DNA of 64,000 nt from a virus. Lineage: Duplodnaviria > Caudoviricetes. The position numbers and the translations under genes are program-made. Below the pieces are notes generated by a model. It had not been told where the DNA came from. It saw nothing but the letters and a program-made list of their open reading frames with translations, and searched no databases. The stretch spans positions 1 to 64,000 of IMG/VR virus record IMGVR_UViG_3300011429_000087. One strand, given 5' to 3'. Positions 13,399 to 57,694 of the stretch are shown here, one piece after another; position 1 is the stretch's first letter, and every line of letters starts with the position of its first letter.

Positions 13399-14094
13399 AT
13401 GACACAAACGCTAATAGATAAAACATGTTTTAATTGCAAAATATCTAAACCTTTATGTTGCTTTTATGATAAGAAAAATAGTAAAGATGGTAAAGAAAAT
13501 CAATGTCAGGATTGTAGACGAAATAAAATGCGTTTTATTAGACAACATAGAGATATTGTTATTACTCCGGCATCTAAAACATGTCCAAAATGTAAGAATG
13601 AGAAATCTTTTTTAGAGTTCTATCGTTCTAAAAAACAATACGACGGTCTTTCTGCGTACTGCAAACAATGCTCAAGTTTTATAGATAATTTAAGAAATGC
13701 TACCACGAGTAGGCGTGATTTTAAAAAGAATTTTCAACAATTGAAACGAGCGGTTAATAAAGAGGTTTGGCAAAAATTCTTTCAAGAAAAATATGGAGAT
13801 CCTATCTGTTCTATTTGTAAATGTTTATTGTCTTGGAATTATGAAGAAAAATATAAAAAAATAAACGATAGAACTTCGTTAGTGATTTTTGACCATAGGT
13901 GTGGCGGTTACGAAAAAATAAAAGGATCACCGTCTCACTGGTATACAGATCATATATGTAATAGTCTTAATAAAGAAATTTGGATGTCTTGTAATTTTGG
14001 TATTCTATGTGCAAAATGTAATACGGGGTTACCAACTCTTAATAGAGAAGGGTGGTTAGTGAATGTTATAGGTTATATAGGAGTTAAATCGTGA
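13399..14094 (+). CDS. HNH/EndoVII-like homing endonuclease with CxxC repeats
   Basis: KTCxxC..FY..K...DG....CxxC repeats; DHR..GILCAKCN; AT-rich. Confidence 0.75.
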   Translation: MTQTLIDKTCFNCKISKPLCCFYDKKNSKDGKENQCQDCRRNKMRFIRQHRDIVITPASKTCPKCKNEKSFLEFYRSKKQYDGLSAYCKQCSSFIDNLRNATTSRRDFKKNFQQLKRAVNKEVWQKFFQEKYGDPICSICKCLLSWNYEEKYKKINDRTSLVIFDHRCGGYEKIKGSPSHWYTDHICNSLNKEIWMSCNFGILCAKCNTGLPTLNREGWLVNVIGYIGVKS

Positions 14095-15026
14095 AATTTG
14101 CCATGTTATATGCTGCTTGGGAGGGGGAGGGATGGTCGAGTCCGATCGGCTTTCGTAATGAATTAGTAAAGCGTGGACACGAAATTGTACATTACAACCT
14201 CTATCATAGAGATGGTGTTGTAGATTATAAAGGACAAATACGTAAATATTCAAATGAAGGTATTAATAAATTCCATGCAGATTGTCGCAGAGGCGATATG
14301 CCTGACGCAGTTTTCTTATTGGATTATGGGCAATTTGATGCAGCACAGTTTGATAAAAAATGGATACCAGAAATAGTTTGGATCACAGAACAAGGCGACG
14401 AACCACAATCACATCAGGCACAGACACCTAAAGCCTTAAAAGCCGATCTAGTTTTATCTCCAGATCATCGCTGCGTTCTTAGATACCACACGATGGGAGT
14501 AAATGCCAAGTTTTGGACGCATTGTGCGGACCAATCGTTGTTTTATCCGCGAAGCGACATTCCAGAAATGTGGGACTGCGTGACAACATGCGGTCCACGC
14601 GGCGGTGGTCTGACAGAACAAATTAAGTCTGTATTAGGCGATAGATTTAACAATGAACGTTATTTTTATGGCGAAGATCATGCAAAACGTCTTTCAATGG
14701 GGAAGATGGTATTTCAATGCAGTCAATTTAAAGAAGTGACCCGTCGCATTTTCGAGGGGGCGGCCTGTGGCAAAATGGTAATTACCGATAGATTACCAGC
14801 AAATACTAAACTGTCGGAACTATTAGTAGAGAATGATGATATTGTCTATTACGACAATGTAGATGACGCAATCAATAAGATTAAATTTTATTCAGAGAAT
14901 GAAACCGAAAGAAAGCGAATTGCCCTCAATGGGTATAATAAAGTTATTAAAGAACATTCTGTTTCTAAACGAATAGATGATTTATTGATTTATATTGAAG
15001 AATTTAAACATGACAAGCTCAAGTAA
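14091..15026 (+). CDS. Glycosyltransferase (GT-B, CgeB-like)
   Basis: RRIFEGAACGKMVITD, IVYYDN.DD.I.KIKFY, ERKRIA.NGY.KV.KEH. Confidence 0.85.
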   Translation: MKFAMLYAAWEGEGWSSPIGFRNELVKRGHEIVHYNLYHRDGVVDYKGQIRKYSNEGINKFHADCRRGDMPDAVFLLDYGQFDAAQFDKKWIPEIVWITEQGDEPQSHQAQTPKALKADLVLSPDHRCVLRYHTMGVNAKFWTHCADQSLFYPRSDIPEMWDCVTTCGPRGGGLTEQIKSVLGDRFNNERYFYGEDHAKRLSMGKMVFQCSQFKEVTRRIFEGAACGKMVITDRLPANTKLSELLVENDDIVYYDNVDDAINKIKFYSENETERKRIALNGYNKVIKEHSVSKRIDDLLIYIEEFKHDKLK

Positions 15027-15816
15027 ACATTTATTACCGGGACAGCCCCGATGGGACTATAGTATCCAGCAATATAAAAAAGGACACCCGTTCTGCGAAA
15101 AAGACCTTTGTTCTATTCTATTTCTAGCATGTGGGCGACCAGATGTAACGAGACGCTCATTATTAGCAACTCTTGACTGCATTAAACTTTTTCCAGGCGA
15201 AGTAGAGTTAATTTGTATTGAGAATGGTAAAGATGAAGCGAATTTTAGTTTCTTTCAAGATATTCCTATTCAAAGGAAGGTGATTGTTCGACAAGATAAC
15301 TATGGCATAAATCATGGCTTAAATCAAGCTTGGGCTCTCTCTCGCGGGGAGTTTTGTATCGTTCATGAGAATGATTGGGAACCACATAAAATTATAGATT
15401 TTATTTCTATTATACGAGATATTTTTAATGAGAAAAAGGATGTAGGTATTGTTCAGTTACGTTCTATATGGGATAGTAACGAACAGTGGGGAAGAGGTAA
15501 GCCAGAATATTGGCCTTGGGATTTATCACCAGAGGTATTAAATCCTAAAGGAATTAAAGTATGGCATGAAAAAACAAAAACTGGTCATGAATACTTAATT
15601 TCTAACTTTAATAATGGTTTTAATAACAATCCAATTGCTATGCATAAAAAACTATTTATGGAGTTACATCCATATCCGGAACCAGAAATTGGTACAGATC
15701 CTAGACATGGCGAAACATTATACCAAGAAGCCGTAGCTAGTACAGGATGTGCAATTGCTCATATCAATATGGATCTTTATTATCATATTGGAAGGATTCA
15801 AACGGTGCCAAAATGA
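15010..15816 (+). CDS. Glycosyltransferase family 2 (GT-A)
   Basis: SILFLACGRP, ELICIENG, NYGINHGLNQAW..SRGEF.IVHENDW. Confidence 0.8.
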   Translation: MTSSSKHLLPGQPRWDYSIQQYKKGHPFCEKDLCSILFLACGRPDVTRRSLLATLDCIKLFPGEVELICIENGKDEANFSFFQDIPIQRKVIVRQDNYGINHGLNQAWALSRGEFCIVHENDWEPHKIIDFISIIRDIFNEKKDVGIVQLRSIWDSNEQWGRGKPEYWPWDLSPEVLNPKGIKVWHEKTKTGHEYLISNFNNGFNNNPIAMHKKLFMELHPYPEPEIGTDPRHGETLYQEAVASTGCAIAHINMDLYYHIGRIQTVPK

Positions 15817-16151
15817 ATAATATTCATCCAAAGGGTTGGGGATATGAACTATGGATTCATAATGACGAGAAATATTGTGGAAAACTATTAGTTATCTTTG
15901 CTGGAAAGAAGTGTTCACTACATTATCACAAACTTAAGCATGAGACATTTTATCTTCAAAGTGGGCGACTTAGTGTTTATATGAAGTACCCAGATGGTCG
16001 TGAAGAACGACTTATAATGGAAAAAGGTATGACTCAGGAAGTTCCTATTGGCACAATACATCAGATGCAGGCAATTGAACATACCGAACTGTTTGAGTTT
16101 TCGACACAACATTTTGATGATGATTCTTATAGAATTGAGAAGGGGGATTAA
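15813..16151 (+). CDS. Cupin, sugar(-phosphate) isomerase-like
   Basis: PKGWGYE, SLHYHKLKHETFY..SG, P.G..H, FEFST. Confidence 0.8.
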   Translation: MNNIHPKGWGYELWIHNDEKYCGKLLVIFAGKKCSLHYHKLKHETFYLQSGRLSVYMKYPDGREERLIMEKGMTQEVPIGTIHQMQAIEHTELFEFSTQHFDDDSYRIEKGD

Positions 16152-16415
16152 ATGAAAGAAATATTAAATCATGGCGATATTGTTCTTTGGAATGGTAAAC
16201 GAGTGACTTGTACTGCCAAACATGCCCAAGGCATATGGCACACATATCATTTTAATGACGGTTCAAGTTTTAATGGGGACGTAAAAGCAATGTTTGCGAG
16301 CGGTGTTTTACAAGAAGTAGAATTGCCAAAAATAAAAATAAATGCAATACCACCCTGGACGCCCAAAGGAAAATTAGATGGGCCGATCTCCAATAAACCC
16401 TCAAAGGAAGATTAA
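16152..16415 (+). CDS. Hypothetical protein
   Basis: Coupled ORF with GGGG RBS. Confidence 0.6.
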   Translation: MKEILNHGDIVLWNGKRVTCTAKHAQGIWHTYHFNDGSSFNGDVKAMFASGVLQEVELPKIKINAIPPWTPKGKLDGPISNKPSKED

Positions 16416-56439: not shown

Positions 56440-56451
56440 GGTAGATTATGT

Positions 56452-57015
56452 ATGAATGTTTTAATTAATAAAACTTGTCTAGAATGTATAAATACATTTG
56501 AAACGATTGCTACTAATAGTAAAAAATCACGTAAACTATGTCGCGATTGTTATTTTCGTAAAAGACGAGAAGTCATGATAAAAACTAATAAAAATAGAGT
56601 GAAGAATAAATCTATTCAGTGTCAAAAATGTTTAAGTATATTTTTGGCAGCTAAAAAGAATGCTAAATGCTGTCCAACTTGTAGACAACAAAATGATAGT
56701 AGAAAGAGTCCTACATATTTAAAAAGTGAACATTATCGTTTAAAGTCTATTGAATGGAGTCATAATCACAGGGCCAGAGCAAAAGGTTCTCTATCTAAAT
56801 TTCATAAAAAGTATATTTCTCAATTACTTGCGGATTATAATCATCAGTGTGTTTATTGTGGATCTGATAAAAAATTAACTGTAGACCATTTAATTCCAAT
56901 AGTTAGGGGTGGCTCTAATGACTATAATAATTTAACGTTAGCCTGTTTATCTTGCAATTCGGCAAAACGAGACAAAATGCCATTAAACTTTCTTTGTTAT
57001 CGAATCTCAAAATAG
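56452..57015 (+). CDS. HNH endonuclease
   Basis: CxxC repeats; CVYCG..LTVDH.IP..RGG.N...NL..AC.SCN..K. Confidence 0.9.
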   Translation: MNVLINKTCLECINTFETIATNSKKSRKLCRDCYFRKRREVMIKTNKNRVKNKSIQCQKCLSIFLAAKKNAKCCPTCRQQNDSRKSPTYLKSEHYRLKSIEWSHNHRARAKGSLSKFHKKYISQLLADYNHQCVYCGSDKKLTVDHLIPIVRGGSNDYNNLTLACLSCNSAKRDKMPLNFLCYRISK

Positions 57016-57037
57016 TCGCAAGTTCTAGGAGTATAAT

Positions 57038-57694
57038 ATGGTTTCAGGAGTTCGTTTTACAGCTTGTTCTGGAGCTATGGGTGGTCAACCATCCAATAGA
57101 GCCTTTATTAACGCTCTTGAGATTTTTAATATGCAGCCCGGCGACACTACGTCGCCATTACGTTTAGGCTTCTTCGGTGCCGGGGGAGCCCCCAACGCGG
57201 CCGTGATCGTCGGAGAATATCAGGATCGTACCCACCGTACTAATCATAACGGGAGCGATCTAGGCGTCTTTATTAACCAGAAGTTCTCGTCTTCTACAGT
57301 GGCAATTATTTCTGGAGTAACCTTCCCGAATATGACGGATGTTCCGGGCAATTCAGGCACATTGTTATGCCGGTTCACGGAGCCGACCGCCCAACAGGTC
57401 CAAACTCAGAACGCCACATTCCGTGCCATTTCATTTAACTCATCTTCTGGTGTGCCAAATATTGATAGTATTCCTGCCAATATTAATATACAGGCTTTCG
57501 AAGTTAAGAATACAGTAGGAGGAACTGGTGACGGAAGCTGGACAGATATTACAAGTGGTAGTAATGCCCTTGCACTAGACGCACAGGCCGCCACCGCGAG
57601 CGTCCACGACTTTATCGTTGGCGTGTCTGCCTCACCAACAACCACTGGAACTAATCGAGATTTCGGCTTTATGTTAAGGCTAGAATATTTCTAA
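57038..57694 (+). CDS. Virion structural protein
   Basis: AGGAG RBS; beta-rich; six SG motifs. Confidence 0.6.
   Translation: MVSGVRFTACSGAMGGQPSNRAFINALEIFNMQPGDTTSPLRLGFFGAGGAPNAAVIVGEYQDRTHRTNHNGSDLGVFINQKFSSSTVAIISGVTFPNMTDVPGNSGTLLCRFTEPTAQQVQTQNATFRAISFNSSSGVPNIDSIPANINIQAFEVKNTVGGTGDGSWTDITSGSNALALDAQAATASVHDFIVGVSASPTTTGTNRDFGFMLRLEYF

Follow-up and report, generated by a model that had tools for sequence, protein, structure and literature searches.

Why the dipeptide Ser-Gly (SG) is so frequent in the tail proteins of one uncultured phage is the question raised by the first 64 kb of its 164,551-bp contig (IMG/VR record IMGVR_UViG_3300011429_000087; Duplodnaviria, Caudoviricetes; genome G000), which has an estimated completeness of 80% (CheckV). 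In this stretch of 64,000 nucleotides, termed the window here, two glycosyltransferase (GT) genes and a cupin gene precede the terminase large subunit gene (terL), and SG-rich neck, tail and baseplate proteins are encoded downstream. The original prediction, made from the window, took SG for the acceptor motif of a virion O-glycosylation system that is read by these GTs and gives the particle a glycan coat. Our analysis confirmed the SG excess and revealed a strong constraint on the serine. As for its cause, we tentatively favour a structural turn over a glycosylation site, and the evidence on both is given below.

SG dipeptides were recounted directly, and the expected number for each protein was obtained from 2000 shuffles that kept its composition. 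Proteins are named by the first position of their genes, all on the + strand. The SG and reversed (GS) counts of the original prediction were all reproduced exactly. The largest excess was found for the 1560-aa 46418 protein (46418..51100), a tail or fibre protein with concanavalin A (ConA)-like lectin and PKD domains (Laminin_G_3, 3.8e-17; PKD_4, 2e-10), which contains 39 SG versus 16.3 expected (z 6.2) and 12 GS. A 498-aa baseplate hub or tube-initiator-like protein (42558..44054, the hub hereafter) has 13 versus 3.7 (z 5.3), a 342-aa neck or tail protein with no Pfam or PHROG match (31854..32882) has 6 versus 1.3 (z 4.2), and a 1098-aa tail protein with no family match (51100..54396) has 19 versus 9.4 (z 3.4). 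The excess was weaker, with z values of 2.2 to 2.7, for a 641-aa tail protein (54408..56333; 12 versus 6.4, z 2.5), the 218-aa product of the last gene in the tail module (57038..57694; 6 versus 2.3, z 2.7), a 202-aa beta-sandwich protein (44981..45589; 6 versus 2.3) and its 185-aa paralogue (44054..44611; 4 versus 1.5). The 29266 protein, with five SG, had also been named as enriched and does not stand up to the shuffle test (z 1.5), and the 32961 protein showed no significant excess either (z 1.2).

Among the controls, SG was found at about the expected level in the 1683-aa tape measure protein (37503..42554; 6 versus 7.8) and in terL (17543..19519; phrog_2, 4.9e-31; 2 versus 2.1), and there was none in the major capsid protein (MCP) candidate (26239..27270; phrog_2522, 7.9e-5; 23.5% identity to the phage G major head protein; 1.3 expected), these three also lying on the + strand. 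The portal and RecA contain no SG and the helicase two. When the tail set was pooled, 137 SG were counted versus 56.8 expected (z 11.5), and SG was the sole outlying dipeptide, with every other one at z <4. Neither GS (66 versus 57) nor TG (36 versus 46) was in excess, and the fold over expectation was 2.43 for SG, 1.41 for NG, 1.16 for DG and 0.79 for TG. Gly is preceded by Ser in 22.5% of cases in the tail set, compared with 5.9% in the remainder of the genome and 8.5% in the baseplate and fibre proteins of T4. The remainder of the genome was neutral (156 versus 155.7). Three further SG-rich fibre-like proteins are encoded beyond the window at 107.2-110.4 kb of the genome (SG 19/393, 6/255 and 12/387 aa). 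These results indicated that the excess survives correction for composition, the check named beforehand, and that it is limited to tail, baseplate and fibre proteins.

It is hardly conceivable that composition, repeats within proteins, paralogy or a motif at the DNA level could have produced the excess as an artefact. Some redundancy does exist: one repeat of 14-residue period supplies six of the 39 SG of the 46418 protein, the 44054 protein is a paralogue of 44981, and 107227 and 108425 have a C-terminal region in common. Against such an origin stand the z value of 11.5 from composition-keeping shuffles with GS unenriched, the lack of detectable mutual similarity (BLAST) between most of the SG-rich proteins, and the recurrence of the excess in all relatives examined (see below). 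The serine codons of SG are drawn from both codon boxes and from at least 12 different hexamers, and a DNA motif was therefore rejected. Repeats and paralogy were rejected as the cause as well, since nothing beyond two weak paralogue pairs and a single short repeat was found. The SG excess is thus confirmed as real. The repeat consists of six SG-x-IGG units at residues 1235, 1263, 1277, 1291, 1305 and 1319 (window 50120-50393), spaced by 14 residues with one 28-residue gap, and its spacing recalls the 14-residue beta-roll repeats of trimeric adhesin heads.

We compared the phage with its relatives and with more distant records. The SG excess from the hub onward was 2.2- to 2.7-fold in 23 of 23 relatives of the family in IMG/VR, with a ratio of about 1.0 on the tape-measure side. 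Searches that started from terL, from the hub or MCP, or from a remote hub homologue revealed no cultured relative. The baseplate and fibre proteins of T4 contain 58 SG versus 56 expected, and in two complete genomes that encode a remote hub homologue, G017 (170 kb) and G016 (127 kb), the z value does not exceed 3.4 for any protein (3.2 in G016). The possibility that SG excess is a general property of tail proteins was rejected on the basis of these three. Among the 46 out-group records with a remote hub homologue, the SG ratio ranged from 0.99 to 2.52, and a distant homologue of the 57038 protein in an out-group (L039) adjoins SG-rich proteins there. In a separate lineage, G020 and its relatives, the same excess was found in giant proteins that are not homologous to those of our phage. 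In G020 itself these are a 4148-aa protein with 96 SG versus 34.5 and a 1348-aa protein with 55 versus 19.9 (G020:C1:129023-141469 and 155316-159362; L133-L134), neither of them with BLAST similarity to the tail proteins of our phage. Large proteins neighbouring such giants in related loci are not SG-rich.

Conservation of the motif was high in all four tail proteins that were aligned. For the hub, 10 of the 13 SG sites were kept in at least 97% of 120 homologues (55-91% identity), and the 46418 protein retained 22 of its 39 sites in at least 90% of 19 orthologues at just 39% identity. All four sites of the 44054 protein were 99% kept among 20 orthologues (52% identity), and four sites of the 44981 protein were kept in at least 90% of its orthologues. 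Overall, SG was kept at 0.76, compared with 0.27 for DG and 0.41 for NG (four proteins, 62 sites). The claim that SG is selected in these proteins was borne out as strong, serine-specific purifying selection: where the Gly was kept, Ser was kept at 0.88, versus 0.33 for Asp and 0.55 for Asn. Since this retention is far above that of Asp and Asn, the constraint on the serine is one to which ordinary turn-forming residues are not subject. Judged from these alignments, SG is the best-conserved feature of the tail proteins in question.

The sites share the context phi(-3)-small-[A/G/P]-S-G-phi-phi (phi, hydrophobic residue), in which positions -1 and -2 hold small residues or Pro. Hydrophobic residues occupy positions +1 and +2 after SG at 60% and 52% of sites, respectively, versus a background of 33%, and charged residues account for 5-9% from -3 to +3 versus 15%, with no E or K directly after SG at any site in the tail set. 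This context does not fit the analogy to proteoglycans drawn by the original prediction. Proteoglycan Ser-Gly xylosylation needs acidic flanks, takes place in disordered regions of secreted proteins, and uses a Ser that Thr cannot replace. The phage sites resemble it in the dipeptide and, within the family, in a Ser not replaceable by Thr, and differ in their hydrophobic, uncharged flanks, from which acidic residues are depleted.

AlphaFold2 models of two proteins, the hub (predicted local distance difference test score, pLDDT, 78) and the 44981 protein (pLDDT 68), were used to place 19 SG sites, of which 13 fell in coil, while strand ends, strands and helices held 2 each. In these two models, the glycines of SG did not differ from other glycines in secondary-structure placement. 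Foldseek matches of the hub were weak (E 3e-3 or weaker) and included tail-tube/Hcp, SPP1 Dit and Mu gp44 chains, which would be consistent with a protein built of tail-tube-like domains in the baseplate core. The 44981 model, mainly of beta strands, resembles a generic beta-sandwich, with no clear match to the PDB in the fold search. No match to PHROGs or Pfam was found for most of the tail proteins, and the ESM Atlas search returned viral hypothetical clusters only. The candidate sites are internal to tail-tip proteins and do not lie on C-terminal extensions of capsid or tail-tube subunits. Given that the MCP carries no SG, the proposed glycan coat is doubtful.

More distant hub sequences gave a different picture of the motif. 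Among 84 remote hub homologues, SG was kept at site 208 in 56 and at site 252 in 38, with D or N as alternates, and site 61 is occupied by S, D or T. Such exchange of S, D, N and T before Gly was seen in remote hub homologues, not within the family or in the G020 lineage. In addition, the SG excess of out-group hubs is independent of the SG level of the neighbouring proteins (rho 0.08). Taken together, the exchange and this independence indicated that the hub signal is partly intrinsic to the fold.

The three sugar-related genes on which the original prediction rested are present. They encode a CgeB-type GT-B glycosyltransferase (14091..15026, + strand; PF13524, 3.6e-23; no PDB sequence match), a GT-A-like glycosyltransferase (15010..15816, + strand, with its ATG at 15010; weak GT2, PF00535 at 1.7e-4, under the Pfam cut-off) and a small cupin protein (15813..16151, + strand; phrog_7851, 2.5e-45; Cupin_2/Cupin_1 matches and a weak WbuC-family match). 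The ATG of the cupin gene overlaps the GT-A stop codon, and its DNA is similar to a cyanomyovirus gene. The GT-B and GT-A genes are located 1.7-3.5 kb upstream of terL and occupy the same position in the relatives L006 and L007. Orthologues of the GT-A were found only inside the family (36-62% identity), with none in the 46 out-group records and none in the SG-rich G020 lineage, which lends no support to the proposal that the two GTs upstream of terL read SG. PF13524 genes number three to six in each of 13 of 13 large relatives.

The phage genome encodes about 14 soluble GTs in total, far more than the two named earlier. A block at 69-96 kb contains GT genes of the GT4, GT2 and PF13524 types, three of each, and a further PF13524 fragment that follows a LAGLIDADG gene, together with genes for S-adenosylmethionine (SAM) methyltransferases, a HAD phosphatase and a sugar-1-phosphate nucleotidyltransferase, and gmd (TIGR01472, 9.6e-103) and fcl (NF047922, 3.1e-78) at 93.6-96.1 kb. 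It is preceded by a replication module of RecA, DnaB, primase, nuclease and DNA polymerase III alpha genes. The assignment of the GT genes to the late programme from their position is weak, as the + strand block is about 100 kb long and includes the replication genes; because the GT block follows the replication module, co-orientation with structural genes is uninformative on timing.

A simple hydropathy scan of the whole genome predicted at most two membrane segments for any protein, which leaves no flippase, polymerase or priming transferase; a holin and any other membrane proteins in the 164 kb must be small. No match was found for a ThyA-type hydroxymethylase (PF00303) in this genome, itself estimated as 80% complete, or for a TET/JBP enzyme (PF12851) with a profile that matched nowhere, the control included. 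Because both multi-segment membrane proteins and a thymidylate-synthase-type hydroxymethylase were missing from the gene content, the glycan is most likely a cytoplasmic product assembled on a soluble acceptor, a role for which virion proteins would be the most plausible candidates.

The GT block holds two composite loci. At 77150-78982 of the genome (L001:13150-14982), a protein of the inosine monophosphate dehydrogenase/GMP reductase type (PF00478, 1.3e-61) carries an HNH_3 domain in its N-terminal part. At 84946-87085 (L002:946-3085), an intact CgeB-type GT gene, the LAGLIDADG gene and a 133-aa open reading frame (ORF) that matches the C-terminal half of PF13524 (5.6e-26) lie in succession.

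Does the GT content track the SG excess? Within the family both traits are universal (13 of 13 large members), and co-variation can therefore be examined only outside it. The expected co-variation was not observed there: in the 46 out-group records the PF13524 count did not correlate with the SG ratio (rho -0.19), and the complete genome G016 has about seven GTs and no SG-rich protein. PF00535 and PF00534 (GT2 and GT1/4) occur in nearly every large record, G017 included. An fcl orthologue was found in five of five SG-rich out-groups with data and also in five SG-poor ones (p 0.12, from non-independent data). The BLAST matches present in SG-rich G020 and absent from SG-poor G016 and G017 were just fcl, a weak GT2 and a 160-aa head-region protein, from too few genomes to carry much weight. 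Every large phage examined has some GT, and for want of a GT-free genome in the comparison this test neither supports nor refutes a glycosylation sequon. The present analysis gave no evidence of a link between GTs and SG. The fcl orthologue of G020 (G020:C1:111739-112644) contains one in-frame TAG, which may point to a defective gene, an error in sequencing or a reassigned stop codon. A module of about 4 kb with the order CgeB-like GT, GT2, CgeB-like GT recurs in many of the out-groups G013-G047 (e.g. G028:C1:59770-67858), with little or no tail SG excess there.

We consider that the SG motif may be a tight turn critical to folding and assembly, reused in the beta-rich proteins of baseplate, tail tip and fibres, and we put the probability of this at roughly 0.45; judged from sequence, it would cover this phage family and at least one neighbouring lineage. 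The Gly would take up a left-handed turn conformation, a geometry that we infer, and the small Ser would pack or hydrogen-bond between two hydrophobic strands, so that packing within the oligomeric tail assembly would hold both residues in place, with no need for modification. The GT genes, that is, the pair upstream of terL and the 27-kb block at 69-96 kb, would then belong to a separate system, again as we infer, consisting of soluble enzymes only and making a fucose-containing, probably methylated cytoplasmic glycan; its acceptor could be virion proteins, not necessarily at SG. This structural turn is favoured by the hydrophobic, uncharged flanks, by the D, N and T alternates in remote hubs, and by single hub sites that are 97-100% invariant, which is typical of structural residues. 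It is also favoured by the presence of some SG in helices and strands, the ten invariant sites on a baseplate-core hub, the MCP without SG, an SG excess that does not track GT content, and the lack of the GT-A orthologue in the G020 lineage. In addition, GG is nearly as conserved as SG when the second Gly is kept (0.84 versus 0.88).

Gly in a left-handed position is found in the type I turn plus G1 bulge and in Asx/ST turns. The phage motif resembles the canonical beta-turn with left-handed Gly in its order of a small residue or Pro, S/D/N, G and then a strand start, and in the alternation of S, D, N and T in remote hubs. It differs from it within the phage family, where D, N and T do not substitute for S and the excess is specific to S. 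This serine specificity weighs against a structural turn, in the retention of Ser over Asp and Asn described above, in the overall conservation of SG (0.76) versus DG plus NG (0.34; p 2e-6), and in the giant non-homologous protein of the G020 lineage, which shows the same pattern (Ser 0.86 versus 0.52 and 0.31). The excess spans at least nine proteins without detectable homology, with tube-like, beta-sandwich, ConA-like, PKD and fibre-repeat folds, and such a spread across unrelated folds would fit a trans-acting reader. The tail proteins of T4, G016 and G017 build similar machines without SG excess, and the structural turn leaves about 14 soluble GTs, gmd, fcl and methyltransferases without a known acceptor or membrane machinery.

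A trans-acting reader of the motif could be a glycosylation system, in which the soluble GTs of the phage would attach O-glycans to the SG serines of tail-tip beta-turns in the cytoplasm, either ahead of assembly or in its course. The strand-turn-strand motif would receive its first sugar from a Ser-specific enzyme, and the enzymes encoded at 69-96 kb would extend it with fucose and methylated sugars. We regard this as possible and, on balance, unlikely. It would account for a serine-specific constraint in at least nine unrelated proteins and two lineages and for an excess that is limited to virion tail proteins and missing from the remaining proteome, T4, G016 and G017, and it agrees with the 13 of 19 mapped sites that lie in loops. 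The gene content is compatible with it as well: the GTs, gmd (1e-102), fcl (3e-78), the nucleotidyltransferase and the SAM methyltransferases are encoded, the membrane proteins of a lipid-linked pathway were not found, no hydroxymethylase or TET/JBP-type enzyme for DNA glycosylation was matched (PF12851 being a profile without a match anywhere), both traits are kept in 13 of 13 large family members, and fcl accompanies the SG-rich out-groups with data. Against it, the excess does not co-vary with PF13524, PF00535 or fcl, GT-rich G016 has no SG-rich protein, and some GT in every large phage leaves no GT-less control. Further points against it are the hydrophobic, uncharged flanks and the location of some sites in helices or strands; bulky glycans would be hard to fit on ten invariant sites of a baseplate-core hub, the hub sites are partly fold-intrinsic, and the MCP, the main exposed surface, has no SG. 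The broader proposal, that a widespread uncultured family of 150-180-kb phages and at least one neighbouring lineage O-glycosylate dozens of invariant [A/G/P]-S-G-hydrophobic turn serines by a Ser-specific soluble GT, with cytoplasmic extension by fucose and methylated sugars, and so coat the adsorption apparatus rather than the capsid, is equally doubtful. A different factor acting in trans on the serine, whether by phosphorylation, by acylation or as a shared tail-fibre chaperone or assembly factor that recognises strand-turn-strand, appears improbable. Constraint specific to serine in proteins that are unrelated speaks for a shared reader without identifying it, but no kinase, acyltransferase or candidate chaperone family was found beside the SG-rich genes, and just the three proteins named above have matches in G020 and not in G016 or G017.

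Three known systems provide points of comparison. Mycobacteriophages O-glycosylate their virions with their own GTs, and in the summary of Freeman et al. (2023) given in PMC12619734 the glycans are on the C-termini of capsid and tail-tube subunits. The systems are alike in GTs of the phage encoded close to structural genes and in virion proteins as proposed acceptors, and they differ in that our phage has an MCP without SG, candidate sites in internal tail-tip turns and a much larger GT set. In chlorovirus PBCV-1, which offers a precedent for a virus-encoded glycosylation system, the capsid is glycosylated at non-canonical sequons by viral GDP-mannose 4,6-dehydratase (GMD), GDP-fucose synthase (GMER), GTs and a sugar methyltransferase (PMC7019647). 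The phage resembles it in carrying genes for GMD, for GDP-fucose synthase and for several soluble GTs and methyltransferases, and no gene for a lipid carrier, a flippase or a polymerase was found. Likened on gene content, it also resembles it in putative cytoplasmic assembly and non-canonical sites. PBCV-1 differs in being a eukaryotic virus whose glycosylation is N-linked and acts on the major capsid protein, whereas the phage capsid protein is without the SG motif, although acceptor sites of another kind are conceivable in it. A further precedent is the heptosylation of serines in a structural motif of beta-helix adhesins: TibC/AAH hyper-O-glycosylates Ser of the beta-rich TibA and AIDA-I in the cytoplasm and, according to PMC4358343 and PMC5000012 (citing Charbonneau 2012), recognises a structural arrangement rather than a linear sequon. 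The sugar there is heptose from ADP-heptose, whereas GDP-fucose is the only donor pathway seen in the phage, and no TibC/AAH heptosyltransferase was found among the Pfam and NCBIfam matches of the GTs examined, to which no dedicated search was added. The resemblance would thus point to a possible way of working, not to membership.

To our knowledge, phage virion glycosylation has been described only for a few mycobacteriophages, no acceptor motif has been defined for any phage, and the soluble glycan-building gene set of this family is among the largest seen in a phage. A single dipeptide appears to be the best-conserved feature of the whole adsorption apparatus in a common environmental phage family. 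Should these serines bear sugars, SG would be the first phage O-glycosylation sequon and would make glycosylated virions predictable from sequence, with a bearing on host recognition, particle stability and phage engineering. If they do not, the motif would represent a previously undescribed structural signature of tail proteins, useful for annotating unrecognisable tail genes in metagenomes.

The + strand gene run starts at about 11.4 kb with a weak sigma-like gene, followed by the GT-B, GT-A and cupin genes, nuclease genes and terL, and continues with the portal, the MCP, neck and tail genes, the tape measure, the hub and the large tail proteins up to 57694. Two ORFs directly 5' of the tape measure gene (36153-36977 and 36844-37503) overlap by 134 nt; an overlapping ORF pair before the tape measure gene is the usual arrangement of a frameshifted tail-assembly-chaperone pair, and this pair is chaperone-like. 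Just beyond the window, at 64779-68033 of the genome (L001:779-4033), lies a gene for a full bacterial-type DNA polymerase III alpha subunit with PHP, NTPase, finger and HHH domains, which adjoins the RecA, DnaB, primase and PD-(D/E)XK nuclease genes. Six homing endonuclease genes of the HNH or endonuclease VII type are interspersed among the structural and packaging genes (13333-14094, 16415-17047, 23153-23869, 27397-28359, 30141-30710 and 56353-57015), and those at 30141 and 56353 are paralogues with 39% identity over 79 residues.

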